Shown here piece after piece: positions 29,219 to 63,964 of a stretch of 64,000 bases of DNA. Below the pieces are notes generated by a model. That model saw nothing but the letters and a program-made list of their open reading frames with translations, did no database searches and was not told where the DNA came from. Numbering within the stretch: the first letter of the stretch is position 1; each line of letters begins with the position of its first letter. The DNA lies in sequence record OM386653.1; one strand, written 5' to 3'. The stretch comes from Escherichia phage vB_EcoM_ESCO8. The position numbers and the translations under genes are program-made.

Positions 29219-29520
29219 CTGTTACAAGAACAGCAACATAGGAACATCATTAATGAAGGATTTAGTATAGGATTTCCCTATCAATTATTCTATATATACC
29301 TATTATTTTTAACACACCCCTTTGTACATAATATAGACAAATAAATATCTATGCCACAAAAATTTTCCGGTATACCCGATTTATTTCGACACACCCCCTT
29401 TTCATAAACGTAAAGTCAATAATATCAATAACTTGCCGCAAAATACTGCTCGCTTGCGAGAGGTGCTTAACGCGATTTTCAGCGCCCCCCGATTTCTGCC
29501 GACCGTCCCCCTCAAATATC

Positions 29521-29543
29521 AATGAGAATTATTATCATTTGCA
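29521..29543. promoter_or_regulatory. Fur-box-like palindromic site 1 (aatgagaattattatcatttgc)
   Basis: 14 of 19 match to GATAATGATAATCATTATC by eye; AATGA...TCATT inverted repeat. Confidence 0.35.
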
Positions 29544-29718
29544 TTATCATTCAATGACTTATAAGACTTTTGATTATTTTCTGAGCAAGAAAGGCACTAC
29601 TCACAACAAAACAGATAAATTCTAAGTAAATCAATGGCTTGGCATTTCTAAACATCTATATACACCTTGCCAAATGAAATGATCTGGCGTGAAATAGTGC
29701 CACCCGTGGAAGATAGCT

Positions 29719-29737
29719 GATAATGATTCTCATTTGC
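29719..29737. promoter_or_regulatory. Fur-box-like site 2 (gataatgattctcatttgc)
   Basis: Exact GATAATGAT half-site; 15 of 19 to Fur consensus; near-identical copy at 42212-42230. Confidence 0.4.
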
Positions 29738-30568
29738 ATACTTTCTGTACTATAAAACCGACTAAAAATCAAGATAATTCTATTTTATTGCGCTTTTAAG
29801 AAAGTAGGCTCAACAAATGGTAAGTTATATTGCAACAAATAGGGATAGTTATGCCCGACAAATAACAACAATAGTATGAAAAATCATCTATTCGGATGTA
29901 AATAATTTTGCGCAATAGCACTGTGTTCCCATAGCGCCCCCTGGAGGGTGGCGCATTATGATCATCAATGTCATTATTCACCATGTTTATTATTGCATAG
30001 CTTATATTATAGCCAATGTTCTAAACATTAGCTAATAATAACGCACCGCAACAATGTAAGGGAATACAATATACCATGTATATTGTTGCGCTTGCAATTG
30101 TTGCAAGCTACATAAGCACAGATAATAACTATCGGTGATGGTTATTATGTGGGGTGTGTAGTTGCGTTATTATTAGCCGCCTATGTGTCCGGCATAGGCT
30201 GCTAATGATACGCTTGCGAATTATATTTCTTGTTATAGTTATTGTATGGAATGATTACTGTATGAAATGATTATTTAGGTAATAGATAGGAAGGTAAAGA
30301 TTAGATCATAAATAGATAGGATATTAATTATTTAGTAATGTTACTAACAATTTAATAGTTACTTTGTGCAACAATTCGATAGATTATAGTTATAGTTTTA
30401 AAGGTTAGATAGATTATATTTAGCTTAGTAATGATTTATATTGGTTATTGTTGTTTAATATAAGGTTATCAATGAGATAGTAACAGTAAGTTATAAATAA
30501 AGGTGAGATAATTAGTTTTAATTTAGTTAGATAACTTATTATTTTATAGGTTAGATGGTCATAAGTTA

Positions 30569-30589
30569 AGAATGATTATCATTATTGCA
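30569..30589. promoter_or_regulatory. Fur-box-like site 3 (aagAATGATtATCATTATtgc)
   Basis: Perfect 13-bp palindrome AATGATtATCATT matching the Fur-box core. Confidence 0.4.
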
Positions 30590-30626
30590 TTATGCAGTTT
30601 ATTGCATAAATAATCAGCTATAAATA

Positions 30627-30645
30627 AGAATGATTATCATTTAAG
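30627..30645. promoter_or_regulatory. Fur-box-like site 4 (aagAATGATtATCATTtaa)
   Basis: Same perfect palindrome 45 bp from site 3. Confidence 0.4.
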
Positions 30646-40885: not shown

Positions 40886-41158
40886 TTAAAGCAAAAACGC
40901 TACATCTTGCGCTTTTAGTGTAGTGTCGATCATTTTCGGGCTTTTATAATCCACAAAGCGCGCGGTTTTTTCAATAACGAAGCCGAGATAATCTTGTTTA
41001 TTGAAATTACATTCTTTTTTAAATGTTTCCCGTGCCACGGTGATCGCTGCATCCAGGGATAAACGCCCATCAATATTGATGTTAGCGAAAGATCCGCCAC
41101 CGCGCATAGGTTTACCAGTGATGCCAGCTACGATCATTGATGCGCTATATGATGCCAT
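40886..41158 (-). CDS. hypothetical protein (90 aa)
   Basis: ORF track. Confidence 0.45.
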   Translation of the reverse strand: MASYSASMIVAGITGKPMRGGGSFANINIDGRLSLDAAITVARETFKKECNFNKQDYLGFVIEKTARFVDYKSPKMIDTTLKAQDVAFLL

Positions 41159-41180
41159 GATTATTTCTCTCTTCTGTTAT

Positions 41181-41238
41181 GAGCGGCACTATTGCCGCCC
41201 TATGTGATACATCTTATCAGATTAAAAAACGTTGTCAA
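41181..41238 (-). promoter_or_regulatory. PeSL-like cassette (hairpin GCGGCActatTGCCGC)
   Basis: TTGACA 41233-41238 (minus), 16 nt, TAAGAT, hairpin 41183-41198, then RBS and ATG of 40886..41158. Confidence 0.55.
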
Positions 41239-41609
41239 GAATATTTTTAAAAGATAATAACCGCTACTACAATCCAAAATGGAACGGCTAGAATGATAGC
41301 GTTAATCGTTCCAACCGTCAAGCTGTTTTCTTTCTTGATCATCGTTATCAACCTTTTATAAGTAATGTTATTGTGACGGTGGATTGTGGAGATCCTCACC
41401 TTTGCCCGTCCTGCATTGCGCCCTCCTTTTGTTTATTGTCGTTGTGCCTCGCCCCCCTCGACAAGATGAATAATACGCTACCAGGTGAGGAACGTCAACC
41501 CCTTTTTTAATCTTTTTTCATTTCTTTTTTGCTTGCTATCTATAAAGGAAAGGGGCTATTATCTTTCTACCGCGCCAACCAGGGCGCACATCAAAGAAAG
41601 GGCGATACC

Positions 41610-41876
41610 ATGACAAATACTACTTTACACCTCATGCACTCATTAGGCTGGCAAGGCGGCACGGTGCACCAGGTAGCAAGCGCAACGGGCTTAAAGGTTG
41701 AAACCGTTCTCAACCTGGGCGATCATAAGGTGGAAGAAATAGATCATTTTGATACGTTCGCAAATGGTTATCTATGGGCTTGCAGTGGCGGCGGGGAAAG
41801 CAAGATCCCGCCAGGGGCGCGGGGCGACATGTATTTTTGGCTAGGTGTCCTATCCTGGCAAGAAAACAAAAAATAA
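41610..41876 (+). CDS. hypothetical protein (about 88 aa), GC-rich
   Basis: Track ORF 41529..41876; internal ATG (MTNTTLHL) after aaagaaagggcg preferred; higher GC than surrounding phage DNA. Confidence 0.35.
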   Translation: MTNTTLHLMHSLGWQGGTVHQVASATGLKVETVLNLGDHKVEEIDHFDTFANGYLWACSGGGESKIPPGARGDMYFWLGVLSWQENKK

Positions 41877-41878
41877 TC

Positions 41879-41907
41879 TTGACAAGCCCAGGGATCGGGC
41901 TTATACT
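41879..41907 (+). promoter_or_regulatory. strong sigma70-like promoter (TTGACA-N17-TATACT)
   Basis: Perfect -35 and near-consensus -10; no ORF for about 800 bp downstream. Confidence 0.4.
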
Positions 41908-42138
41908 GTTTTACATACAGAAGAGGAAGCGCCACCCCCACGGCGTAAAGGCGGGGCTAACATACCAGGGCACTACTGGTTGGAAGGTTGATCGCCGGTA
42001 GCTCGTCTAAAATAAATTTGTAAAGAAATGTAAAGATAAAAATAATCGCTTGCTTTTGTTGTTGGTTATGCTATTCTTATTGTATGGCGAGGGGACACGG
42101 GAGCGCGAGACAAACACCGCCCCTGCGCGTTATTCTCT

Positions 42139-42252
42139 AAATGAGAAAATTCTCATTTGCTAATGATTCTCATTCTCTTACTGAGAATGATTATCACTTA
42201 CATACTTAAATGATAATGATTCTCATTTACAAATGAAAATGATTATCATACG
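42139..42252. promoter_or_regulatory. cluster of five Fur-box-like palindromic sites
   Basis: aatgagaaAAttctcatt (8+8 palindrome), AATGAttcTCATT, gAATGATtATCAc, GATAATGATtctCATTtac, AATGATtATCATa within 114 bp. Confidence 0.4.
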
Positions 42253-42269
42253 CACACCCATAAAAACAC

Positions 42270-42478
42270 GAAATTGAACTTTTCATTTTTGATTTTTCTA
42301 CGGAAAAAGGCAAAAAACTTTAAATAAACTGGGGAATTTTTAAAAAATTGAAGTTTTCATTTTCAAAATCTGGATAGAAATACGTACAAAAACTTTAAAT
42401 AATTTTGACCAAACTTGAACTTTTCATTTTCAAAATTTGTACCCAAAAATCTGTAAAAACTTTAAATAATTTTGTCCT
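42270..42478. repeat. three tandem ~66-74 bp direct repeats (ttgaaSttttcattttcaaaat ... aaaactttaaataa)
   Basis: Units begin near 42274, 42348, 42414; each has a TTGAA..TTCAA dyad and a TTTAAATA box. Confidence 0.55.
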
Positions 42479-42688
42479 TTTTATAAAAATGATTTTACTG
42501 TTCTGTTATAAGTAGTAGTTAAGAGATAGTATGCCTTTTAAAGATCAGATACCATAGTCAAACAAACAAATTAAATACTTTATTAACAGAGTACAGAATA
42601 ATATTTACTCTGGATATATTATTCAGAGGGTGGATTTCCGTACATGAAACCCACACCCCTTTTTATAAAAATAAAAATTTTCAAAATA

Positions 42689-43240
42689 TCAGGAAATATC
42701 AGATTGTGCTTTTAGATAAACAGCAAGGTCTGTATGCCATTTTCCTAAAAGATTTTGTCCTTTCCAACAGTCCTTATTTTCCACATCACGATCCCACATT
42801 CCCATTTTGATACCATAAATAGAATCATAAGGGCTTGCCTCTACGAACTCCTTATCTGCGTAAGCGATAAGTTTATTTTTGAGATCTTCATTTTGTGTGT
42901 ATTTAAGATACAAACCACGCTTGACAATCTTCTCCCGTAAAGAAGTCCAAGTAGCTTCATCGTAATCTTTAACTAATCTACCTAGTCGCTTATAATATGC
43001 CTGTTCTTTTTCTCCTGTATATCTTAGATCTCCGGTTAAAATAGAAGATGCAATGTTGTAATCATAAAACAAACATGCTTTTCTCCACATCATATATTGT
43101 TCCACACAAGTAAATTCAACAGAACTTGTAATAGAATTATTATACTTGGGAGCTAAAGGTTCAATAAAAGATGATAGATACCAGTTGCTAAATTCATCTT
43201 TTGCCGAGAAGAAGAACACATACTTATCAGTAATCCGCAT
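42689..43240 (-). CDS. NADAR-domain (YbiA-like) protein
   Basis: 183 aa; FFFSAKDEFSNWY, CVEQYMMWRKA, GQNLLGKWHTDLAVYL fit the NADAR pattern (F.F....SN..., ..EQ..QA.KA, G.NLLG). Confidence 0.65.
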   Translation of the reverse strand: MRITDKYVFFFSAKDEFSNWYLSSFIEPLAPKYNNSITSSVEFTCVEQYMMWRKACLFYDYNIASSILTGDLRYTGEKEQAYYKRLGRLVKDYDEATWTSLREKIVKRGLYLKYTQNEDLKNKLIAYADKEFVEASPYDSIYGIKMGMWDRDVENKDCWKGQNLLGKWHTDLAVYLKAQSDIS

Positions 43241-44413
43241 TTACATCTCCTTACTGTATACTAATTTGCCACCATATTGTGTAATAATTTTTTGAAGATT
43301 TTCCAAATCAGAAACACTTACTGTTTCTGTATAACCATCTTTCAACTCTCTTGCCGTTAAAATACCAGTTTTTAATTTTTTCTTTATAGCTCTTTCAGCA
43401 GCCCTACATTGTTTCACTGTGCTAAAATCATATAAACAAATACGCCCCATAAAAAACAGATTACGGCTCTTTTGACCGTTTAATCGTCTATCGCTATCTT
43501 TAGATATACCAAACTTAAGAGCAACTATAATATCATTATCTTTAACAATATTAATATATAATTGCTGTTGATTATGACCAGCACACTGTGGACAACCTTG
43601 ACCGAGGCTTAATAAATTACGAGCACTCCCTATCTGCTCACCATGCACAAGACAAAGATATTTAAACTTACCTATAGAAGAGGGTTTGGTAATCCAATCT
43701 ACCCAGACATACCCTTTCCCTTCTACTTCCTTTTTTACCCTATAGGTGATCTGGTCTTCTGTATACTGATAGTTCCCACAACGACACGGAATATACCCTT
43801 GTTTAAGGTTATGTCCTGCAGAGTAAAATTTACCATCACAAACACCTGCTTGAACATATTCATCATGGGAGCAAACAGGACACTCAACCATCCATACTGC
43901 ATCACGCTTGTTACGTTTCCCTGTATTGGTGAAGATAGTGCCTTCCTTAAATTCCCCTGTAGAAAAGAAATCTGCAATATGTTGATCGTCGGACATTGTT
44001 TGTCTCTCCCTCTTACATTGTGGACAACCGCTACCACGTTTAAAATTGTTAATACTTGTAGTATCCCATTTATTACCACAATGACACAACAAATCAAGTT
44101 TTGTTTTATTCCCTTTCCATTCTCCCACGTACCCTAACACCTGATACCCCCTCTTCTGTGCTATCTCTTCCAAGATCGGCAATTCTGTTTCCCATGTTAA
44201 CGGCTTCTTACCAGAACAGATAGGACAACCACGTCCCTTCTTAAAATCATTAATGTTCGTGGTGTTCCACTCTCCATGTTTAGGACAAGATAGCTTAAGT
44301 TTAGTCTTGTTCCCTTTCCATTCACCAACATAACCCAGGATTTGAATATTGCGATTTTTAGCAAGGGGTGTTAATTCTTCTTTATATTGTTCCCATGATT
44401 TTGGTGCTGTCAT
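43241..44413 (-). CDS. zinc-ribbon-repeat protein with C-terminal GIY-YIG/T5orf172-like domain (putative nuclease)
   Basis: 390 aa; two tandem ~45 aa repeats (LGYVGEWKGNKTKL.L.C...G.W.TT.IN.FK.G.GCP.C), further GCPQC motif, C-terminal LYINIV...ALKFGISKDSDRRL resembling the T5orf172 KxGxT...RR core. Confidence 0.4.
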   Translation of the reverse strand: MTAPKSWEQYKEELTPLAKNRNIQILGYVGEWKGNKTKLKLSCPKHGEWNTTNINDFKKGRGCPICSGKKPLTWETELPILEEIAQKRGYQVLGYVGEWKGNKTKLDLLCHCGNKWDTTSINNFKRGSGCPQCKRERQTMSDDQHIADFFSTGEFKEGTIFTNTGKRNKRDAVWMVECPVCSHDEYVQAGVCDGKFYSAGHNLKQGYIPCRCGNYQYTEDQITYRVKKEVEGKGYVWVDWITKPSSIGKFKYLCLVHGEQIGSARNLLSLGQGCPQCAGHNQQQLYINIVKDNDIIVALKFGISKDSDRRLNGQKSRNLFFMGRICLYDFSTVKQCRAAERAIKKKLKTGILTARELKDGYTETVSVSDLENLQKIITQYGGKLVYSKEM

Positions 44414-44450
44414 CTATTACTCCTCTTATTAAATCTGGCATCAATACAAG

Positions 44451-44470
44451 AAAACCCGCCGGAGCGGGTT
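44451..44470. terminator. bidirectional terminator (acccgcCGGAgcgggt + T-run)
   Basis: Same hairpin as 17750-17770. Confidence 0.5.
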
Positions 44471-44487
44471 TTTATTTGCTGGCTTAC

Positions 44488-45615
44488 TTAAAACACGCTT
44501 GCCAAAGTTGCACCATTGGTGATAGTTGGTTCCAGAACAATACGGAAAGAATCTTCTGGATCATCACTAAACACAACGATTTTACCGCCTGTAATAAGAT
44601 CTGCTTTCATTTTTGTCGCATTCAATGGAATTCGAGCATCTCCTTCATCATCAAAAACCACGTAAGAGCTATTAGCAAGGGCTTCTTTAGAGTCTGCATC
44701 ACTTGGAGATGACAAGTACACGTCTAGTGTGCACGAGCCACCTAAAAAGATTGCAGGTGTGAAGTTATGCCAACTAGATACCCAGCTAACTTTCTGAAGT
44801 TTCCCATTAATAACAACGCTGCTGATATCCCACTTATTACCACCACCCAAAGAAACGCCCATCATAGAGATGCATTCTTTAAAGGATAAATCAGGGTAGA
44901 AATTAAGTTCTTCTACTATACCTTGGATCACATCAAAGGACAACTCTAAACTTACATCCCAAAGCCTTTGGAAATTATCAAAGTGTGCTTTGTTATCCAG
45001 GTTTTTATCTAAATAGTCAATCATAGTTTCTAGTGAGATTTTATCATAATTAAAATTATAAAACACACGACTAGGACGATTTAGAAAGAATTCAGAGATA
45101 AAGCCACTGTTTTTAGTTAGAATAAACAGTTTATTACCACTGCCAGTACCATCTAACAAAGTGAGAAGTGCTTCTTGATCTTGTTTCTTCTCATACACTT
45201 TATCAAACTCGTCAAAAATAATCACTGCTTTGTCGGTGATCTTGCTAATAAGTTCAATGAAATTAGCATCGCTGTAGGCTTGAGTAACCATAATAGTTGG
45301 AATACCTTCTTCTACAAGGTCACGACTAATGAGTTTGGCTAACATAGTTTTACCACTACCCTTAGTTCCTGTCAGAAGCAATCCTGTATTTTTACCTTGT
45401 GCACTCCGGCGATGGAATGTACGGATAACGTGATTTGCTCGTTTTTCTGTTTCACCATACAGAACATCCGGTACACCTGTCAGATTACCACGGCTTAAAA
45501 AATAATTGCCAAGGGGATCACGACTAACAGTATAGAATCCAGGTGGAAGATAGTTAGATTCCACGCCCATATCTTTATTTACACTTACAATATCACCATA
45601 AATCGTGTATTTCAT
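44488..45615 (-). CDS. AAA-type P-loop ATPase, paralog 1
   Basis: 375 aa; Walker A GTKGSGKT, Walker B IIFDEFD, NRPSR arginine motif; about 45% identical by eye over the ATPase core to 60181..61341. Confidence 0.6.
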   Translation of the reverse strand: MKYTIYGDIVSVNKDMGVESNYLPPGFYTVSRDPLGNYFLSRGNLTGVPDVLYGETEKRANHVIRTFHRRSAQGKNTGLLLTGTKGSGKTMLAKLISRDLVEEGIPTIMVTQAYSDANFIELISKITDKAVIIFDEFDKVYEKKQDQEALLTLLDGTGSGNKLFILTKNSGFISEFFLNRPSRVFYNFNYDKISLETMIDYLDKNLDNKAHFDNFQRLWDVSLELSFDVIQGIVEELNFYPDLSFKECISMMGVSLGGGNKWDISSVVINGKLQKVSWVSSWHNFTPAIFLGGSCTLDVYLSSPSDADSKEALANSSYVVFDDEGDARIPLNATKMKADLITGGKIVVFSDDPEDSFRIVLEPTITNGATLASVF

Positions 45616-45626
45616 TTTAACCCCTT

Positions 45627-46064
45627 TTATTTTTGTTGAGATGAACGAATTAAATCAGCAGCAAATTCAATCAGATACACTTTTGGTGCAATAATGATTT
45701 TTAGCCAATCAAAATTCGAAAAGAAAATAACAAATCCTAAAAAGAAAAAGAAAGCACAGACAACAAGGCCAACAATAGGTAAAGCAGATACTTCACCATA
45801 GCGATCTCGTGACCACAGGCATTCTTTATCTTTAATTGCTTTTACGAGGTTCCGCACAGCAATAAAAGTAATAAACATAAAGCAAATACTAAAAAGTTGC
45901 CATAAACCTGCGGATACTGCTTTCCACACTAATAGTTGATGGATTACTTCTGGAATTTGTTGTTTTCCAAACTCTACAACATCACTCATTGTTTGAATAG
46001 TGACGTTAACCATGTTCAGAAGTACATCCGTTGCTTTATCTGCGATTGCGTTTGTTTTACTCAT
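45627..46064 (-). CDS. membrane protein (145 aa, multiple TM helices)
   Basis: ORF track; hydrophobic segments. Confidence 0.45.
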   Translation of the reverse strand: MSKTNAIADKATDVLLNMVNVTIQTMSDVVEFGKQQIPEVIHQLLVWKAVSAGLWQLFSICFMFITFIAVRNLVKAIKDKECLWSRDRYGEVSALPIVGLVVCAFFFFLGFVIFFSNFDWLKIIIAPKVYLIEFAADLIRSSQQK

Positions 46065-46078
46065 TCTTTATTCCTCAC

Positions 46079-46252
46079 TTACCTTTTAAGGAAACCAATC
46101 ATAATGAAGAACCACATCCAGGCAGGAGAGATAATAAAGCCAAAGAAACCGCAAATAACCGCTTTCTTAATCTCTTCCAGACAACCCACCAGGAAAAGAA
46201 CGAGTGAGACTACAATCCAGATAGCCATAAATACTGTAACAAAGAAACTCAT
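46079..46252 (-). CDS. small membrane protein (57 aa)
   Basis: Not in track; hydrophobic. Confidence 0.3.
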   Translation of the reverse strand: MSFFVTVFMAIWIVVSLVLFLVGCLEEIKKAVICGFFGFIISPAWMWFFIMIGFLKR

Positions 46253-46272
46253 ACCTTTCTCCCGTCTGTATT

Positions 46273-46524
46273 TTAAAATTCAACCACCACTTTATCGAGG
46301 TGCTCTGCTTCAACTTGATCTAATGTTAACACCTCAACTAAACCCTTGTCAATACCTAATTTAATAACATCAACATATTGTCCAAACAGATCCTGGATAG
46401 ATATCTTGTGTTCGACAACAACAACCACTTCATTCCCTTTTGTGAATTCTCTCCATACACGTCCACATTTGAAAATAAAGTCTGCTTCATCTGCTGTTAT
46501 CATTTTAGGTTTGATACTTAACAT
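46273..46524 (-). CDS. hypothetical protein (83 aa)
   Basis: ORF track. Confidence 0.45.
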   Translation of the reverse strand: MLSIKPKMITADEADFIFKCGRVWREFTKGNEVVVVVEHKISIQDLFGQYVDVIKLGIDKGLVEVLTLDQVEAEHLDKVVVEF

Positions 46525-46862
46525 TATAAAACTCCGTACTCTGGTTCAATATTATGCTTACGACAAATGGCATCCCAACGCTCATTACCAAAACTTCTTC
46601 CATGTAGTGCATCGTATGCGAAATGTTCTGCCAACCACATTACTACACCATCTGGTTCAGTGTCAAGCGGAATTCGAAACTCTCGATCATAACGCATACG
46701 GAGAACAAACTCATTACCGTCTTCCAGCAGGTGCATATGACTTTTAGCTCGTGATGCCAAATCGAAGAAAGGAGGTTCATCGTTCCAAACGTGACGCTCA
46801 ACTTCAACACCATGATCAACTACCAAAGTGGCAATTACTTCTCTCATTTCTTTACTAAACAT
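46524..46862 (-). CDS. hypothetical protein (112 aa)
   Basis: ORF track. Confidence 0.5.
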   Translation of the reverse strand: MFSKEMREVIATLVVDHGVEVERHVWNDEPPFFDLASRAKSHMHLLEDGNEFVLRMRYDREFRIPLDTEPDGVVMWLAEHFAYDALHGRSFGNERWDAICRKHNIEPEYGVL

Positions 46863-46960
46863 ATTAAAGCCCTCCTAATTTAATAGTCCACTCAACACCT
46901 GTTAGATAACTTCTTTACACAAGTATACTAAGAACATATAAGTGATTTTACCAGATATGT

Positions 46961-47314
46961 TTAGCTCCACAAATTATGGAAATACTTAGCAAACAAAATA
47001 CGACCTTCTAAACGCTCTTGCCGTTGTTTTTCATTAACTTCTTCAGGTGGAGTTGAATCCTTAAAAGAGGACTCCATTTTTTCAAGAATTTCTAACCAGT
47101 GTTCTGCTGCTCGTTCTTCCATATAAGGTAGATAGTCACCTTTAGCGTGTGGGTACATCCGACGAAGTAACCCGCTAGGAATTTTAACATTGTTTGTGGC
47201 TATCACTTTTGCACGATATGCAGAAAGTGCGTTGTAGATCAGTTTACTTAGTGTCACATCCAGATCAAGAAGATCACTCTCTTCAAATTGAATTTCATCG
47301 TGTACAATTTTCAT
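46961..47314 (-). CDS. hypothetical protein (117 aa)
   Basis: ORF track. Confidence 0.5.
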   Translation of the reverse strand: MKIVHDEIQFEESDLLDLDVTLSKLIYNALSAYRAKVIATNNVKIPSGLLRRMYPHAKGDYLPYMEERAAEHWLEILEKMESSFKDSTPPEEVNEKQRQERLEGRILFAKYFHNLWS

Positions 47315-47325
47315 ATCACTCTCCT

Positions 47326-47616
47326 TTATAGTAAAACACGTTTTGCACTGCTTGGTGCATTGTCGAACATGTTTATCACTTTGTCAAGTTTGTGTATTAA
47401 CTCGTTCGTAATGTTCCACTCTTTGTATGATCTCCATTGTTTCTTATTCTCACCTACCTGGTGTAAAACTTTGATTGGTGCATTCAAACGTACATTGCGT
47501 TCTTTGTCCTCTTCAAAAGAGGCTAACCATTTTTCGTTATGCCCATGAACAGCAATAATAATGCCAAAACCATCAAAAGTTTCTGTAATATTCTTAGTTG
47601 CTAGTGTGATGTTCAT
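47326..47616 (-). CDS. hypothetical protein (96 aa)
   Basis: ORF track. Confidence 0.45.
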   Translation of the reverse strand: MNITLATKNITETFDGFGIIIAVHGHNEKWLASFEEDKERNVRLNAPIKVLHQVGENKKQWRSYKEWNITNELIHKLDKVINMFDNAPSSAKRVLL

Positions 47617-47665
47617 ATCTAACCTCTTTTGTTACGATACCCACAGAGTACCAGAAACTAATTTC

Positions 47666-47693
47666 AAATCAAGTATTGACATACATTTTTATT
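47666..47693 (+). promoter_or_regulatory. sigma70-like promoter (TTGACA-N16-TAAGAT) in divergent intergenic region
   Basis: Same -10 hexamer as several PeSL cassettes; drives the plus-strand block starting at 47735. Confidence 0.45.
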
Positions 47694-47734
47694 TTGTTAA
47701 GATTAGCGCATACCAAATGAAAGGAGAAAAACAA

Positions 47735-47881
47735 ATGCAAAACATCGAACTAACTTCTATCGAAGCTAAAGAAGCAATGAAGGAAGATAGACGTGTTGAA
47801 CATAACCGTTTTTGCGGTGGTGAGTGGTTTGAGATGGAATTCAGATCGGAAGTTTGGCAAGGGAGTGATGGGGGGGTGTAA
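47735..47881 (+). CDS. small protein (48 aa)
   Basis: Track ORF 47561..47881; internal ATG after gaaaggagaaaaacaa RBS. Confidence 0.35.
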   Translation: MQNIELTSIEAKEAMKEDRRVEHNRFCGGEWFEMEFRSEVWQGSDGGV

Positions 47882-57851: not shown

Positions 57852-57880
57852 AAAGCCAGCTTAATGCTGGCTTTTATTTT
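57852..57880 (+). terminator. rho-independent terminator (aagccagcTTAATgctggctt + T-run)
   Basis: Hairpin after 56854..57804 stop; argues that the nrdD start is at 57894, not 57864. Confidence 0.55.
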
Positions 57881-57893
57881 CCACGGAGGATTA

Positions 57894-59693
57894 ATGACCC
57901 AAAAACTATATGAGGATGTAATCGGATTCCTCGAACAAACATCCGAAGAATTTACTCGTGAAAATGCAAACAAACCTGCAATGATTGTTAATACTCACCG
58001 AGACTTACTAGCAGGTATCCTAAGCAAGCACATGGCAATGACCCATATTTTACCGGAAGATCTGGCAGAATGGCATAAAAGTGGGTATGGTCACATTCAC
58101 GATTTAGATTATTTACTCTCACCTTTAACTAATTGTTGCCTGGTAAATTACCAAGATATGCTTGAGAACGGTTTCCGTATTGGTAATGCACATATTGAAA
58201 AACCAAAATCTATCGGTGTAGCGACTACTGTCCTAACTCAAATTATTCAAGCAGTAGCTTCTAGCCAATATGGTGGACAAACTTGTGCACATGTTGATAC
58301 TGGGCTTAGTCAATACGTTAAAGCAAGTTTTAATAAAATATATGCCGATGTTGGCGATTATGATATTGCTATGCGTATGGTAGATAAACAGGTCTATGAT
58401 GCAATGCAAACTTTAATCTACCAGGTGAACACTCTAATGAGTGTAAATGGTCAGTCACCTTTTATAACAATTAGTTTAGGTTTGGATACCTCTGCTTTTG
58501 GTAGAATGATCACTAAAAACTACCTAATGGTGCACAAACAAGGATTGGGAAAAGATAGGGTAACTCCTGTGTTTCCTAAAGTTATCTTCTTCTTGGAAGA
58601 TGGTGTTAACATGAAAGCTGGCGATCCAAATTATGATTTGAAGCAACTGGCAATGGAGTGTTGTGCTGAACGCATTTATCCTGATTTTATCTCTGTACCT
58701 TTAAACAAAGAAGTTACAGGATCTTCAGATGGTCGCGTCACAAGCATGGGTTGCCGTAGCTTCTTGTCATACTATGCAACAGAGCAAGGTGAAAAATATG
58801 ATGGTCGTTTCAACTTAGGCGTAGTTTCTTTAAACTTACCTATCATTGCAGCAGAGTCCCGTGAAAAGGGCATCTTATTTACTGAACTGTTGGAACAACA
58901 TATGGAGATGGCGTATAAGGCACATATGCTACGTGTTAACCGTATTAGACATACCAAAGCATCTCAAAACCCTACATTGTTTATGGAAGGGGCTTTAGCT
59001 CGACTAGAAGCTAATGAAGAGATTGGTAAGCTATTTGAAGGTGGTTATGCCTCTATTAGTATCGGTTATGTAGGTTTAGCAGAAGCTATGGAGATTTTAT
59101 ACCCAGGTAACACCAATCCAAAAGCAATGGGTAAAAACATCCTTCAATATATGAAGGATATCTGTGGCACATTTAAAGAACGTTCTGGTTTAGCTTTTAG
59201 TTTGTATGGAACACCAGCAGAATCCTTGTGCTATAAATTTGCCAAAGCATTAAATGATCGCTATCCTGGTTCTATTGATCGTGACTACTTGACAAACTCT
59301 TTCCATCAACCTGTGTGGATGCACACTACCCCGTTCCAAAAGTGGGATTATGAGGAAGGTTTTGCACAAATCAGTAATGGTGGGAACATAGGCTATGTAG
59401 AAACACCAAACCTTAAAAATAACTTGCAAGCACTGGAAACCCTTGTAGATTATGCCTACAACAAAATTCCTTATTTTGGCGTGAACCAACCTGTAGATCA
59501 GTGTTTCAAATGTGGTTTTCATGGTGAATTTAAGGCAACAGCTAAAGGCTTCGAGTGTCCAAGTTGTGGCAATCATGAGGAAGAATCTATATCTGTAATC
59601 AGAAGAGTGTCAGGATACCTGTCTGCCCCTAACTCTCGCCCTTATAATAAAGGTAAAATGCAAGAGGTATTAGAAAGGGAGAAACATTTTTGA
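57894..59693 (+). CDS. nrdD: anaerobic ribonucleoside-triphosphate reductase
   Basis: About 599 aa; C-terminal zinc ribbon CFKCGFHGEF...CPSCGN followed by glycyl-radical-like RRVSGYL; followed by nrdG. Confidence 0.85.
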   Translation: MTQKLYEDVIGFLEQTSEEFTRENANKPAMIVNTHRDLLAGILSKHMAMTHILPEDLAEWHKSGYGHIHDLDYLLSPLTNCCLVNYQDMLENGFRIGNAHIEKPKSIGVATTVLTQIIQAVASSQYGGQTCAHVDTGLSQYVKASFNKIYADVGDYDIAMRMVDKQVYDAMQTLIYQVNTLMSVNGQSPFITISLGLDTSAFGRMITKNYLMVHKQGLGKDRVTPVFPKVIFFLEDGVNMKAGDPNYDLKQLAMECCAERIYPDFISVPLNKEVTGSSDGRVTSMGCRSFLSYYATEQGEKYDGRFNLGVVSLNLPIIAAESREKGILFTELLEQHMEMAYKAHMLRVNRIRHTKASQNPTLFMEGALARLEANEEIGKLFEGGYASISIGYVGLAEAMEILYPGNTNPKAMGKNILQYMKDICGTFKERSGLAFSLYGTPAESLCYKFAKALNDRYPGSIDRDYLTNSFHQPVWMHTTPFQKWDYEEGFAQISNGGNIGYVETPNLKNNLQALETLVDYAYNKIPYFGVNQPVDQCFKCGFHGEFKATAKGFECPSCGNHEEESISVIRRVSGYLSAPNSRPYNKGKMQEVLEREKHF

Positions 59694-60160
59694 ATTACGC
59701 CGGATATGAACCTGTTGACATGCTCAACGGTGATGGTGTAAGATGCTCTTTGTGGGTGAGCGGTTGTAGCCACGGTTGCCGTGGCTGCTTTAACCAGAAA
59801 GCCTGGTCGTATAACTACGGACAAGAGTTCACTACTGAAACATTAGATCTTATCTTGAAAGATTTATCTCGACCTTTCATTAAAGGATTAACAGTTTTAG
59901 GTGGTGAACCTCTTGACAAAGAGAACATTGACACTGTAGAGTATGTTCTTGAGAAGGTAAGAGATTGTTTTGGAAACAAAAAAGATATTGTCTTATATAC
60001 AGGATATCTTTTTGAAGAAATTCCAGAGAAAATTAAAAAACTGGTTGACATAGTAATAGATGGTAAGTATGATATGACTCAACCAACAACGAAACGTTAT
60101 AGAGGTTCAGATAATCAACGAATGTGGGTTAAGAAAGACAACATTTGGGAATCTGACTAA
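59690..60160 (+). CDS. nrdG: anaerobic RNR activating protein (radical SAM)
   Basis: 156 aa; CSHGCRGC (Cx3Cx2C) radical-SAM cluster motif near N-terminus; directly downstream of nrdD. Confidence 0.85.
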   Translation: MNYAGYEPVDMLNGDGVRCSLWVSGCSHGCRGCFNQKAWSYNYGQEFTTETLDLILKDLSRPFIKGLTVLGGEPLDKENIDTVEYVLEKVRDCFGNKKDIVLYTGYLFEEIPEKIKKLVDIVIDGKYDMTQPTTKRYRGSDNQRMWVKKDNIWESD

Positions 60161-60180: not shown

Positions 60181-61341
60181 ATGTTTACAGTATTCGGCAA
60201 TCAAATCTTCCTGCGTCAGAAGTCTGGTACAGATATTGAAGAAATTCCAGCAGGAACTTTTGGTGTAGGTGTTACTCAAAGTGGCGAGTTCTTCCTGTAT
60301 CCTAAAAACGATATGGAAGTCCCTTCAGTAACATACGGTGATACTGATGATAAATCAGAACGTATTATCAAGACGTTCCTTAGCCGCAAAGGTAAAAACA
60401 CAGGTGTTCTCCTTGAGGGTACGAAGGGTAGCGGTAAAACTTTGCAAGCTAAAATGCTGTCTTCTGCTCTTCGTGAAATGGGTATTCCTACTATTTCTAT
60501 CGGTAGTGCTTTTAATGGTGAAGGCTTTATCAATTTTATGTCTAAAATCACACAACCTGTGATGATTATGATCGATGAATTTGATAAACTGTATGCTGAA
60601 AAAGATGCACAGGATGGTTTGCTTACCCTGCTGGATGGTGTTGGTGGCTATGACAAGCTGTTTGTATTGACTAAAAATGATGGTTATGTATCAGAATTTT
60701 TGCGTAATCGCCCTAGCCGTATTTTCTACAGCTTTAACTATAAGAAACTACCTAAAGCTACTATGGATGATTATCTGGCTAAAAATCTGGAGAACAAAGC
60801 CTTTTTACCAGATTTTGAAACGCTTTATAATCTGTCCGTGGACTTGAACTTTGATATTGTTCAGTCATTAGTAGAAGAACTTAACCGTTACCCTAATGAC
60901 AAATTCTCTGATGCACTTGCATTAATGGGTATCAGTATTACTGAACACCGCTATGCTGCAAAAGAAGTTAAACTTCTGAAAGTTAACGGTGTAGATCGTA
61001 CAGGAGATGTTTCGGCAGATACCGATATTGACGGTATGACAGCACAGGGTTTGTTTAGCGGTAATCGTTATGTTGTAGCTGTAGACCATAAGCTAGGAGA
61101 AGAGCATCTTCCTGAAATGGAAGGAGTCGTTACCGTAGAAGATAAAGACGAAGAAGGTGACTACTACTGGGGTGTAGACCGTATCTTGCTGACGTATGAT
61201 GAAAAACACATCCGTACAATGGGCGGTGACGGTTATCACTTTATGTTCACCGATGATAAAGGTAACAACATTGAAGTTGTTATTAAAAACAAAGAACGTA
61301 AAAACTACACAGAGTATGTGTTTGGTGGTCGTTCTTACTAA
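60181..61341 (+). CDS. AAA-type P-loop ATPase, paralog 2
   Basis: 386 aa; Walker A GTKGSGKT, Walker B IMIDEFD, NRPSR; paralog of 44488..45615. Confidence 0.6.
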   Translation: MFTVFGNQIFLRQKSGTDIEEIPAGTFGVGVTQSGEFFLYPKNDMEVPSVTYGDTDDKSERIIKTFLSRKGKNTGVLLEGTKGSGKTLQAKMLSSALREMGIPTISIGSAFNGEGFINFMSKITQPVMIMIDEFDKLYAEKDAQDGLLTLLDGVGGYDKLFVLTKNDGYVSEFLRNRPSRIFYSFNYKKLPKATMDDYLAKNLENKAFLPDFETLYNLSVDLNFDIVQSLVEELNRYPNDKFSDALALMGISITEHRYAAKEVKLLKVNGVDRTGDVSADTDIDGMTAQGLFSGNRYVVAVDHKLGEEHLPEMEGVVTVEDKDEEGDYYWGVDRILLTYDEKHIRTMGGDGYHFMFTDDKGNNIEVVIKNKERKNYTEYVFGGRSY

Positions 61342-61590: not shown

Positions 61591-61746
61591 ATGCTTACAG
61601 ATGATGAATATAAAGCTATCCAAGAAAAACTAACGGAACTTGAAATTCTTGCTGTCAATATTAAAGATCAATCACATGCTGGAAAGTTACTACATCAAGA
61701 GATCAATAAAATTAAGCAGATGATATTCTTTTGGACGGAGGATTAA
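61591..61746 (+). CDS. small protein (51 aa)
   Basis: Not in track; ggggaagaaaATG RBS; stop abuts HAD-like gene. Confidence 0.35.
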   Translation: MLTDDEYKAIQEKLTELEILAVNIKDQSHAGKLLHQEINKIKQMIFFWTED

Positions 61747-61748
61747 AA

Positions 61749-62405
61749 ATGACTGTTAAGCATATTTCTTTTGATGTATGGAATACTCTTATTACTGCTA
61801 ATCCTTTGTATGCAGAAGAACGCAACAAGGTTATTGCCGAGTATGCCTCTTGTTCTGAGGTAGAAGCAGCTACCGTATATAAAGAGGTAAAAACTCTCCT
61901 GGATTTAAAAGCAGAAAAAGGCATTTGTGGAACATCTAGAAATGCTTGGGAAACACTTTCTGCTCGTTTGAACATTGATCTTGATAAAGTAGATGGGTTA
62001 AAAAGAGACTGTTTAGCAATGTTTATAAAACATCCTCCAACATTAAACCCTGAACTTTGCAAGAAGTTGGAAGAGCTAAGTTCAACCTATTCTTTGAGTA
62101 TTAAAAGCAATACTAATTTTGTACCTGGTAGTTTTTTAGCTGTATATTCTGGCTTGACAAAATTACCATTCGACTTTATGCATTTTTCTGACGAGTTTTG
62201 CTTGTGTAAACCAGATCCTAGGTTTTTTAAACTCTCTTTTGATGAAATGGTAACGTTTGATCTCGCACCAGAGGAGATCTTACACGTTGGAGATAGTTTG
62301 ATCTATGATGGAAAAGCTGTTGACATAGGGATGAAGTTCTGTCATATTATTAATCCAGAAGACTTGTTGGCTAAACTTAAAAAAGAGGAACTTATTAATG
62401 CGTAA
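61749..62405 (+). CDS. HAD-superfamily-like hydrolase, tentative
   Basis: Track ORF from 61731; ATG at 61749 after ggaggattaaaa. N-terminal ISFDVWNTL (haloacid-dehalogenase-like DxxGTL variant) and C-terminal HVGDSLIYDGKAVDIGM (motif IV-like). Confidence 0.45.
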   Translation: MTVKHISFDVWNTLITANPLYAEERNKVIAEYASCSEVEAATVYKEVKTLLDLKAEKGICGTSRNAWETLSARLNIDLDKVDGLKRDCLAMFIKHPPTLNPELCKKLEELSSTYSLSIKSNTNFVPGSFLAVYSGLTKLPFDFMHFSDEFCLCKPDPRFFKLSFDEMVTFDLAPEEILHVGDSLIYDGKAVDIGMKFCHIINPEDLLAKLKKEELINA

Positions 62406-63255
62406 TCAAATTCAACATTTTGCTAATACTTTTACTAACCTGAAGGAAGCAAAATTTAACATTGCAGATTATTCCAAGCTAAAGTTTGGTAGTAACCAGG
62501 CAGCAAAAAGAATGGGGCGCATTCTGGCTGAAAGTTTCTTTTCCAAGTATGAAGAACGACTGGTAAATGAAAGTTTTGTTGTTATTCCATCTCCATATAA
62601 CTATGTGAAAAATGCAGCTACAGTGTTATCTGAACATTTTGTAGATCACCTCAACTACCTAATCTCTATCAAAGGAGGTAAAGCAGTGGAGTGGGATATC
62701 GTTCATCGTAAAGTGAGCTATATCAATGATTATGGATTTCTTAGCAAAGAAGATCGTAAGGCTTTGATCGATGGTGACACTTTCTCTATCAATCGTGATT
62801 TCTGGGGTAATAAAACTCTGATTTTCATTGATGATGTTAATATTACAGGAACGCACGAAGAAAAACTTATTGAAATTTTAGACAAAGAAGGTGTTGAAAA
62901 CGATACGTTTTTCCTGTACTTTGCAAAGTATGAAGGTACAGAAGCCAATACCGAAGCTGCACTTAACTTCAACTATATCAATAACCTGGCAGCTTTTATT
63001 AAAATGATTAAACAAGAAACTGATGCTAAATGTTTGGTTCGTCCTATTAAGTATCTAATGAGTCAAAGCGAAGTTGATTTTAAAATTGCACTTTCACAGC
63101 TTCCTTTGTATTATGTAGAACAACTGTTCTTTGGTTGCCTTGCAGAAGGCTACAATAACATTGAAAAATATAAAGAGAACTTTGATTTCCTACGTCAATT
63201 TTTTGAAAGCAACATTATCAACAAATCTAATGTTAAAGGGGATTATTATGTCTAA
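62398..63255 (+). CDS. phosphoribosyltransferase (type I PRT) fold protein
   Basis: 285 aa; TLIFIDDVNITGTH matches the PRPP-binding loop (hhhhDDhhxTGxT). Confidence 0.5.
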   Translation: MRNQIQHFANTFTNLKEAKFNIADYSKLKFGSNQAAKRMGRILAESFFSKYEERLVNESFVVIPSPYNYVKNAATVLSEHFVDHLNYLISIKGGKAVEWDIVHRKVSYINDYGFLSKEDRKALIDGDTFSINRDFWGNKTLIFIDDVNITGTHEEKLIEILDKEGVENDTFFLYFAKYEGTEANTEAALNFNYINNLAAFIKMIKQETDAKCLVRPIKYLMSQSEVDFKIALSQLPLYYVEQLFFGCLAEGYNNIEKYKENFDFLRQFFESNIINKSNVKGDYYV

Positions 63256-63964
63256 TAAAGTAATGACTTTCGGAGATCCTATCACCAATATTACAGAAAA
63301 AGATTTTGGGCGTGTAGCAACAGATAAAGATGGTGTCTTAAGAATTCGTGTACAAGGTATTACAGCACAGGATGAATATGCTGTGTATGTTTCAGGTCTT
63401 AACTATATTGATGATCGCATTACACAAAACTTTGCACTGATCGGTGGTGTAGAGAAAATGTATTGGGAAGATGAAATTGTAACAAGTTATCCGGCAGGTA
63501 TCATTGAGGTATACGGTGATCTTTTAGCAGCAGCCGAGAGAGGCGATATAGACGCTATAGCACACTGCTGTAACTGTTTTTGCACTATGGGTAGTGGTAT
63601 TGCACCAAAAATTAAAAGCAAGTGGCCTGGTGCGTTTAAAGCAGATTGTGCCACTAAACATGGTGATTATAAAAAATTAGGTACGTTTACCAAATATATA
63701 GAAAACAATTTGACAATTTATAATTTATATGGACAATATGGTTATAGTCGTCGTGAGGAAGGTAAGCGTGACCTGAATTATGAAGCTATCTACAATGCGT
63801 TAGATAGTATGGGAGACGATGTTGTATCTTCAGGCGGTAAAATTGTAGGTTTACCAATGCTTGGTTGTGGTTTGGCTGGAGGTTCTTGGAGTATTGTAAA
63901 ACTTATGATCGAAGAAACTCTAGTAAACAAAGGTTTAAATGTAATTGTTTACAAACTGAAATAA
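63248..63964 (+). CDS. macro-domain protein with N-terminal extension
   Basis: Track ORF from 63131; ATG at 63248 (MSNKV). GDIDAIAHCCNCFCTMGSGIA resembles macro D-A-I-V-N-A-A-N...GGGV; C-terminal VGLPMLGCGLAGGS resembles the macro diphosphate-binding loop. Confidence 0.5.
   Translation: MSNKVMTFGDPITNITEKDFGRVATDKDGVLRIRVQGITAQDEYAVYVSGLNYIDDRITQNFALIGGVEKMYWEDEIVTSYPAGIIEVYGDLLAAAERGDIDAIAHCCNCFCTMGSGIAPKIKSKWPGAFKADCATKHGDYKKLGTFTKYIENNLTIYNLYGQYGYSRREEGKRDLNYEAIYNALDSMGDDVVSSGGKIVGLPMLGCGLAGGSWSIVKLMIEETLVNKGLNVIVYKLK

Follow-up and report, generated by a model that had tools for sequence, protein, structure and literature searches.

Neighbouring but probably separable genes for an AdfN-type NADAR protein, a putative homing endonuclease, and an AAA+ ATPase in a phi92-like coliphage

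Escherichia phage vB_EcoM_ESCO8 (sequence record OM386653.1), of which a stretch of 64,000 nucleotides (the window) was analyzed, harbors three adjacent genes on the minus strand that encode an AAA+ ATPase (45615..44488, 375 residues), a nuclease-like protein (44413..43241, 390 residues), and a NADAR-domain protein (43240..42689, 183 residues). The three genes are neighbors but appear to be functionally separable. The NADAR protein would counter the toxin DarT on its own, and the nuclease gene is best described as a homing-endonuclease-type insertion; the probability of this reading is estimated at about 0.8. An earlier note on this DNA had correctly placed the three co-directional reading frames and had proposed that they form one anti-defense or DNA repair unit. 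The proposed unit is not supported, because the near-identical NADAR protein AdfN-Bas60 works alone, the endonuclease gene is an insertion, and NADAR genes show no general linkage to the other two families.

The window is from a phi92-like coliphage of the genus Justusliebigvirus, subfamily Stephanstirmvirinae. Over region 42000-46100, it shares 99.9% identity with Escherichia phage outra; among the other best-matching phi92-like phages, which share 94-99%, are the BASEL phages Bas60 (PaulScherrer), Bas61, and Bas62 (JohannJBalmer). The phi92 counterparts of the ATPase, the nuclease-like gene, and the NADAR gene are gp221, gp222, and gp223, respectively. The genes are proposed to be the last ones of a leftward early transcription unit; the order is ATPase, nuclease, NADAR, and AT-rich non-coding region. 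The earlier placement of the genes right after the non-coding region is therefore wrong; in the sense of transcription, they are upstream of it.

The NADAR protein

The 183-residue protein matches the NADAR family of Pfam (PF08719) with an E-value of 2.3e-36 and 126 bits (cut-off 35.1) over positions 9-154 of the 163 in the profile, which bears out the NADAR signature recognized earlier. It also matches a NADAR in the PDB (8bau, E 2.5e-12). Over all 183 residues, its identity to the Bas60 protein is 98.4%, and that to the Bas62 protein is 99.5%. The corresponding genes (bas60_0111 and bas62_0106) occupy the locus that NADAR has in the window, with the endonuclease and ATPase genes as neighbors there too. 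The window protein is thus an orthologue of AdfN-Bas60.

Residues E47, K54, and E134 (the latter in the sequence FVEASPYD) are invariant in five phage NADARs with 36-59% mutual identity. The E-x6-K spacing of E47 and K54 matches that of catalytic pairs validated by mutation, E36/K43 in T4 AdfN and E88/K95 in the E. coli C7 NADAR. The third catalytic residue is a histidine in the T4 clade, an aspartate in DarG1, and a glutamate in the window protein. This last-strand glutamate groups the protein with the stand-alone/YbiA type and not with the DarG1 or T4 types.

The NADAR protein found in Bas60, Bas61, and Bas62 has been named AdfN-Bas60 (Johannesman, Carlson & LeRoux, Nat Commun 2025;16:1598; PMC11825919). 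Expressed alone, it neutralizes the DarT1 toxin in uninfected E. coli and restores the plating of three unrelated phages, RB69, T5, and Bas25, on DarTG1 hosts; it has no effect on the thymine-modifying DarTG2, and its action needs no other phage factors (PMC11825919). On the basis of the 98.4% identity and the conserved catalytic residues, the window protein is predicted to be a stand-alone DNA guanine ADP-ribosylglycohydrolase that counters DarT1. It would strip ADP-ribose from guanine in DNA, and this reversal of the host DarT1 modification would let the phage replicate in DarTG1 hosts. A role as a countermeasure to DarT-type toxins, as suggested in the earlier note, is correct but already published, having been experimentally demonstrated for the same gene lineage. 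The window protein, which shares its genus, locus, and catalytic residues with AdfN-Bas60, differs from it by few substitutions, and the closest relative of the window phage is outra rather than the phages used in the experiments.

AdfN-T4 (gp30.3) and the NADAR antitoxins associated with DarG1/DarT1 resemble the window protein in their fold family and E-x6-K pair, as well as in the hydrolysis of guanine-linked ADP-ribose predicted for it. However, there are differences. AdfN-T4 depends on the T-even context, and the Bas60 type acts independently of it. The window protein has no N-terminal extension and no adjacent DarT gene. Neither a DarT nor an ART domain was found when the seven other proteins encoded in this leftward block were scanned with Pfam, and the other side of the NADAR gene is non-coding. 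With no DarT gene nearby, the window NADAR counts as an antitoxin-like orphan, in line with the published description of phage AdfNs. PADLOC returned one NADAR-type match (PDC-M42C) and otherwise weak P-loop matches only.

NADAR proteins have also been connected to small molecules, and the window protein might act chiefly on these, i.e., on riboflavin intermediates, as YbiA does, or on soluble immune signals derived from ADP-ribose. Such a function would agree with the last-strand glutamate of the YbiA subfamily, the BASEL label 'putative YbiA-like N-glycosidase', a match above cut-off to NCBIfam TIGR02464 ('riboflavin biosynthesis intermediates N-glycosidase', 1.4e-31), and the proposal by Iyer et al. 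that soluble ADP-ribose derivatives are the main substrates of phage NADARs (PMC9503650). However, the 98.4%-identical protein has experimental anti-DarT1 activity that is specific for the guanine type and absent with the thymine type, and guanine-linked ADP-ribose is hydrolyzed in vitro by all NADAR subfamilies tested, YbiA included. It is improbable that small molecules are the chief substrates, although a role of this kind can coexist with the anti-DarT role.

Several records labeled as Campylobacter phages also match the locus, namely MG065689, MG065656, MG065650, and MG065672 (A110a, C3, B15, and A141). The host labels of these records look doubtful. A110a and C3 are 92-94% identical to the window DNA. 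The NADAR proteins of A110a and B15 are 98.9% and 59.3% identical to that of the window, respectively.

The zinc-finger nuclease

The 390-residue protein is bipartite. Residues 1-280 (43574..44413, minus strand) form a hypervariable DNA-binding half with three CapR-homology treble-clef zinc fingers and an extra CxxC...CxC zinc ribbon, and residues 281-390 (43244..43573, minus strand) form a C-terminal T5orf172/GIY-YIG-fold nuclease domain. In Pfam, the protein matches CapR (PF21817, E 2.9e-43) in three stretches, DUF4379 (2.2e-6), and DUF723 (1.4e-5), and its zinc-ribbon motifs are GRGCPIC, GSGCPQC, and GQGCPQC, together with ECPVC. The T5orf172 profile scores 18.4 bits with the window allele, just below the 20-bit Pfam cut-off, and just above it with another allele; the domain has the GIY-YIG fold and belongs to the T5orf172/GIY-YIG superfamily. 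The GxGCPxC ribbons and T5orf172/GIY-YIG-like C-terminus reported earlier are thus confirmed. A sequence search of the PDB with the protein gave chance antibody matches only, and no second copy of the gene is present within the window.

Ten residues of the nuclease motif, Y286, K300, G302, R310, Q314, E340, D359, G360, E363, and T364, are invariant in 42 homologues with identities down to 24%, indicating that the catalytic domain is under purifying selection. On the basis of this conserved active site, the domain architecture, a precise insertion, a recurrent break point, and the hypervariability of the DNA-binding half, the protein is assigned as a free-standing T5orf172-family endonuclease of the homing type, with putative cleavage and homing activities. 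Its gene is inserted between two older neighbors, the ATPase and NADAR genes, and is selfish or possibly co-opted.

The insertion is most evident in the sister genus Phapecoctavirus. In Phapecoctavirus anhysbys, the ATPase gene is followed by an endonuclease gene (402 residues, CapR x3/MUG113), genes for proteins of 121 and 62 residues, and NADAR. In phiWec190, the order is ATPase, 121-residue gene, 62-residue gene, and NADAR; both phiWec188 and phiWec190 lack the endonuclease at the precise site and keep the ATPase and NADAR. The sole difference in the alignment of anhysbys and phiWec190 is a 1203-bp segment equal to the endonuclease open reading frame, with 3 nt between the homologous flanks. 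The segment starts directly past the ATPase terminator, and the gene behind it regains a ribosome-binding site from the 3′ end of the segment. A probe of 601 bp that spans the junction without the endonuclease (...GGGGCATTTCTCATATACGGAGGAAAA...) aligns without interruption to only 3 of 77 records. In the non-contiguous Phapecoctavirus records, the probe breaks at the same base, position 287, often with an annotated 'endonuclease'. The gene is therefore polymorphic for presence and absence at a fixed site between collinear genomes in Phapecoctavirus, and no empty site was found within Justusliebigvirus, where the site is occupied in 55 of 55 records.

The borders of the gene in the window are similarly tidy. 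An intrinsic terminator hairpin lies between the ATPase and endonuclease genes (44451..44472, minus strand; AAAACCCGC-TCCG-GCGGGTTTT followed by a T-rich tail). A terminator scan rates it as strong, with a 9-bp stem that includes 5 GC pairs; the same terminator is annotated as bidirectional in phage Paula, and an equivalent hairpin follows the ATPase in Phapecoctavirus genomes with and without the endonuclease alike. The endonuclease ATG is 37 nt past the terminator. At the other end, the stop codon TAA (43243..43241) directly abuts the NADAR ATG (43240..43238), and the Shine-Dalgarno sequence AAGGAG of NADAR (43247..43252, minus strand) lies inside the last endonuclease codons, six bases before that ATG. 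Insertion just after the terminator, with a 3′ end that supplies the ribosome-binding site of the next gene as in anhysbys, would thus be a tidy one. No promoter is recognizable in the 37 nt ahead of the endonuclease ATG or elsewhere between the ATPase and the downstream genes; therefore, the endonuclease and NADAR genes are probably expressed through terminator read-through.

The hypervariability is confined to the DNA-binding half. Across 55 Justusliebigvirus records, the ATPase is at least 99% identical in 54 and NADAR at least 95% identical in all 55, and the endonuclease is at least 95% identical in 16, 80-90% in 22, and 60-80% in 17. In a sliding comparison with Bas60, KKE7M, and PD06, the flanks are 95-100% identical and the nuclease domain stays at 96-97%, whereas the DNA-binding half (43450-44350) drops to 78% or is interrupted by indels. 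Allele lengths fall into classes of 325-330, 390-408, 465-477, and 527-669 residues in otherwise near-identical phages, owing to gain and loss of zinc-finger units of ~61-77 residues (L006:2744-4147, L005:5244-6233, and P0002-P0060 in our set). These length classes amount to a natural series of DNA-binding-array variants. Alleles are also mosaic; the nuclease domain of P0029 is nearly identical to that of the window, and its DNA-binding region has diverged.

The CapR zinc fingers would read the DNA target in a beads-on-a-string fashion, with cutting expected from the GIY-YIG-fold domain. In mixed infections, such cutting would bias the inheritance of the endonuclease gene and closely linked markers. 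T4 Seg proteins and I-TevI combine a GIY-YIG catalytic domain with modular DNA binding in which a zinc finger takes part, and the free-standing GIY-YIG endonucleases of T4 are inserted between genes while the neighboring genes are still expressed. The window protein resembles them in its GIY-YIG-fold domain, modular DNA binding, and intergenic insertion.

Closer relatives are the T5orf172 homing endonucleases of ICP1 (gp165, gp174, etc.). A tblastn search aligns the 390-residue protein to an ICP1 'putative homing endonuclease' with 27.8% identity over 82% of the query (E 3e-23). Both have N-terminal CapR/DUF723 repeats and a C-terminal T5orf172 domain, and both vary in repeat number and shuffle domains. 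They differ in host phage lineage and insertion site, and cleavage by the subfamily is putative. The PLE repressor CapR has the same type of N-terminal repeats but no nuclease domain; this satellite repressor derives from the T5orf172 homing-endonuclease family.

Two considerations weigh against the homing-endonuclease assignment. The endonuclease is fixed in the 55 Justusliebigvirus records, yet its nuclease residues are invariant. A purely selfish element without empty sites is not expected to keep them, which hints at a retained function. In addition, nuclease activity and homing are themselves putative, for the window protein and its close relatives alike. The gene may instead have been domesticated, with the PLE CapR as the precedent for a transcription regulator and ICP1 Odn as the precedent for a weapon directed at competing phages or satellites. 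Near-fixation in Phapecoctavirus as well, and a rapid turnover of DNA-binding repeats as in an arms race, would fit such a role. However, the retained nuclease motif speaks against a pure repressor, and a site that is cleanly either occupied or empty is a classic hallmark of homing endonucleases. Domestication is regarded as rather unlikely.

A further variant retains the homing endonuclease but treats it as a vehicle, such that its breaks and the ensuing co-conversion would spread the adjacent NADAR gene, the useful cargo of a 'homing-endonuclease island', among co-infecting relatives. The two genes abut, with the NADAR ribosome-binding site placed within the endonuclease reading frame, and the Klebsiella phages phi1_175008 and KP2025 lack both while keeping the ATPase (74-75% identity). 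Homing endonucleases have been found at the boundaries of genetic exchange and in islands with cargo (Barth et al., PMC10448857), and NADAR also adjoins a GIY-YIG/NUMOD3 endonuclease in one unrelated locus (L015). Nevertheless, phiWec188 and phiWec190 carry NADAR without the endonuclease, and two other genes separate the pair in Phapecoctavirus. NADAR alleles follow the genus (at least 95% identity within and 56-59% between genera) rather than the mosaic endonuclease alleles, and homing itself is putative. Hitch-hiking of NADAR is accordingly considered doubtful, and insertion of the endonuclease between two older genes is the preferred description.

In the two Klebsiella phages, the place of NADAR is taken by a 205-residue protein (L003:3186-3803 in phi1_175008 and L092:3170-3787 in KP2025), which in phi1_175008 matches the Pfam family DUF6939. 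DUF6939 is a large family (925 matches) with an invariant SPF...ENAWQxxK motif. The E-x6-K pattern raised the suspicion of a divergent NADAR, which was rejected, as hhalign gave a probability of 0.1-0.2% with NADAR profiles of 5 and 75 sequences. The protein has no sequence match in the PDB.

Linkage of the three genes

In a three-gene module, the ATPase and nuclease could, for example, process ADP-ribosylated DNA ahead of its cleaning by NADAR. Linkage was surveyed in 80 NADAR loci from IMG/VR (±5 kb), four of which are from Stephanstirmvirinae and 76 of which are unrelated. Homologues of the endonuclease are near NADAR only in the four Stephanstirmvirinae loci (0/76 elsewhere), and an ATPase homologue is within 5 kb in two of the 76 unrelated loci, L051 (Atu_ph07) and L073. 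Among 132 immediate NADAR neighbors in 73 other loci, Pfam identified NUDIX (3), NMNAT-like (3), NAPRTase (2), and NAD synthase (1) proteins, as well as a single GIY-YIG/NUMOD3 endonuclease; neither T5orf172 nor CapR is among the 25 most frequent of the 52 Pfam families matched. Such neighbors are in keeping with published work that associates phage NADARs with NAD+ salvage genes. In Vequintavirinae, NADAR sits in a replication-repair cluster with ligase, exonuclease, and RuvC genes.

Two candidate cases of NADAR-endonuclease linkage were discarded. The endonuclease homologue of KB57 (Mydovirus) has no NADAR within 5 kb, and the 'HNH endonuclease' adjoining NADAR in Klebsiella phage Iguana_ER37 is an annotation without Pfam support.

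The module is consistent with the tight, co-directional packing of the three genes and with the recurrence of their families in this order in Phapecoctavirus. It is at odds with the sufficiency of AdfN-Bas60 against DarT1, with the endonuclease-free phiWec188 and phiWec190, with the retention of the ATPase in Klebsiella phages that lack NADAR, with the near-absence of linkage beyond Stephanstirmvirinae, and with the hypervariable DNA-binding half of the nuclease, which is unlike a recognizer of a fixed lesion. The model is largely refuted, and its probability is judged to be very low.

Some observations nonetheless count against treating the genes as fully separable. The order ATPase, 0-3 genes, NADAR is kept in two genera (Justusliebigvirus and Phapecoctavirus), which could mean more than shared ancestry. 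Given the lack of a promoter between them, the three genes are probably co-transcribed. Finally, the ATPase family recurrently adjoins NAD+/ADP-ribose genes elsewhere, and a thematic link between the ATPase and NADAR is possible.

The AAA+ ATPase

The 375-residue ATPase, an AAA ATPase as the earlier note had it, matches PF00004 (E 1.5e-9) and phrog_2376 (7e-108). Its Walker A and B motifs, sensor 1, and the arginines of the second region of homology are invariant in 33 homologues, and it is a classic-clade AAA+ protein. The AAA core is preceded by a small N-terminal beta domain and followed by 110 beta-rich C-terminal residues. The 'FtsH-like protease' label found in databases is ruled out, since the Pfam scan yields AAA-type P-loop families only and no Peptidase_M41 domain. 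This distinguishes the protein within the classic-clade remodelers (Bcs1, bacterial Trip13, Cdc48/p97, and the AAA module of FtsH), as do its N- and C-terminal domains, which match no solved structure. Several influenza A entries for the NS1 effector domain weakly match residues 201-291 (E 8e-4 to 5e-3). These matches are judged to be due to chance, because they involve one family only with marginal scores and the fold search gave no support. Full-length structural relatives of the ATPase are common, and unannotated, in large phages. The protein is a conserved putative protein remodeler that would predate the endonuclease insertion and act independently of NADAR.

The ATPase family was further surveyed in 79 loci outside Stephanstirmvirinae. 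Genes within 5 kb include NAMPT in 17, Macro in 14, and NadM-Nudix in 12 loci. NAMPT mostly comes right before the ATPase in the same orientation, typically with a gap of 50-100 nt from its end to the ATPase start, and in an unbiased Pfam scan of 135 immediate neighbors, it is the commonest family (9). A co-oriented block of NadM-Nudix, Macro, NAMPT, and ATPase recurs in IMG/VR (L167:1385-6002; similar in L112, L119, L121, L126, L129, L139, and L171). In Agrobacterium phage Atu_ph07 (L008, 839-6946), a stretch of 6 kb holds the ATPase, ClpP, NADAR, and Macro, and in Acinetobacter phage ME3, a gene annotated as a MutT/NUDIX hydrolase follows the ATPase. The Atu_ph07 ATPase is immediately upstream of the ClpP subunit, a hint that it could be an unfoldase partner in that phage.

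The window itself contains a paralogue of the ATPase (60181-61341, plus strand, 386 residues; 47% identity over 254 residues), which follows NrdD (57864-59693) and NrdG (59690-60160). Past the paralogue are genes for a HAD hydrolase (61731-62405), a ComF-like phosphoribosyltransferase (62398-63255), and a Macro-domain protein (63131-63964, plus strand; homology from about 63509, Pfam E 1.6e-6). In 14 loci of environmental phages, homologues of the latter (31-41% identity) adjoin genes for NAMPT and NadM-Nudix. ADP-ribose-processing genes of two types, NADAR and Macro, are thus present in this phage.

These neighborhoods raise the possibility that the ATPase and NADAR are thematically linked in a phage NAD+/ADP-ribose counter-defense neighborhood, in which the AAA+ protein would remodel or unfold a pathway factor of the host or the phage. 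However, single-linkage clustering at 55% identity places 14 of the 17 NAMPT-linked cases in the same cluster, which has 48 members, and shared ancestry may consequently explain much of the signal; independence of the linkage across lineages is not claimed as established. Moreover, 74 of the 76 unrelated NADAR loci have no ATPase, NADAR needs no partner, and the ATPase is kept where NADAR is absent. A thematic link is for these reasons regarded as possible but not probable, and a real functional link between the ATPase and NAD+/ADP-ribose genes as similarly or slightly less likely. The more specific proposal, that the phrog_2376 ATPase is an unrecognized accessory of NAD+/ADP-ribose counter-defense, an unfoldase or remodeler acting on a host effector or on the phage enzymes, and that the endonuclease also helps spread the NADAR allele, is unlikely. 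The family is mentioned neither in the preprint on NAD+ reconstitution (NARP2) nor in the survey of Iyer et al. (PMC9503650).

Surrounding sequence

Upstream of the ATPase, the leftward block is headed by a gene for a 96-residue protein (47326-47616, minus strand) that matches DUF7325 (E 1.7e-19); the remaining small proteins of the block (45627-47314) match only PHROG families of unknown function. An Rfam search of 41000-47800 returned no RNA family.

Downstream of NADAR, Fur-box-like motifs are enriched. The 19-mer GATAATGATAATCATTATC (up to 3 mismatches) has 4 matches against 0.12 expected, and the 13-mer core has 23 against 3.4. The matches lie in two AT-rich non-coding regions, 42159-42247, just downstream of NADAR, and 29500-30640; near 30 kb, the GC skew switches sign and the GC content is as low as 0.30. 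Positions 42270-42474, located past the 3′ end of NADAR and before the Fur-like boxes, hold three tandem copies (two full and one diverged) of a 67-bp unit, AAAATTGAACTTTTCATTTTCAAAATCTGGA...AAAAACTTTAAATAATTTTGACC, a stretch annotated as 'repeat_region' in several related phage records. A plus-strand hairpin with a T-run is found at about 42630-42675.

Implications

These assignments are of value chiefly for annotation. In therapeutic coliphages of the phi92-like and phAPEC8-like groups, AdfN, the experimentally validated anti-DarTG1 factor, goes under the labels 'YbiA-like N-glycosidase', 'GTP cyclohydrolase II', or 'hypothetical'. Its neighbor, labeled 'hypothetical' or 'endonuclease', is a putative mobile T5orf172 homing endonuclease whose hypervariable zinc-finger array marks a recombination hot spot, and the 'FtsH-like protease' label of the ATPase is wrong. 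More generally, where an anti-defense gene adjoins a nuclease gene, homing-endonuclease signatures should be checked before a functional module is called. The sole forward-looking element is the linkage of the ATPase to NAD+/ADP-ribose genes. If the association with NAMPT, Macro, and NADAR is real, it would add a protein-remodeling component to phage NAD+/ADP-ribose counter-defense.

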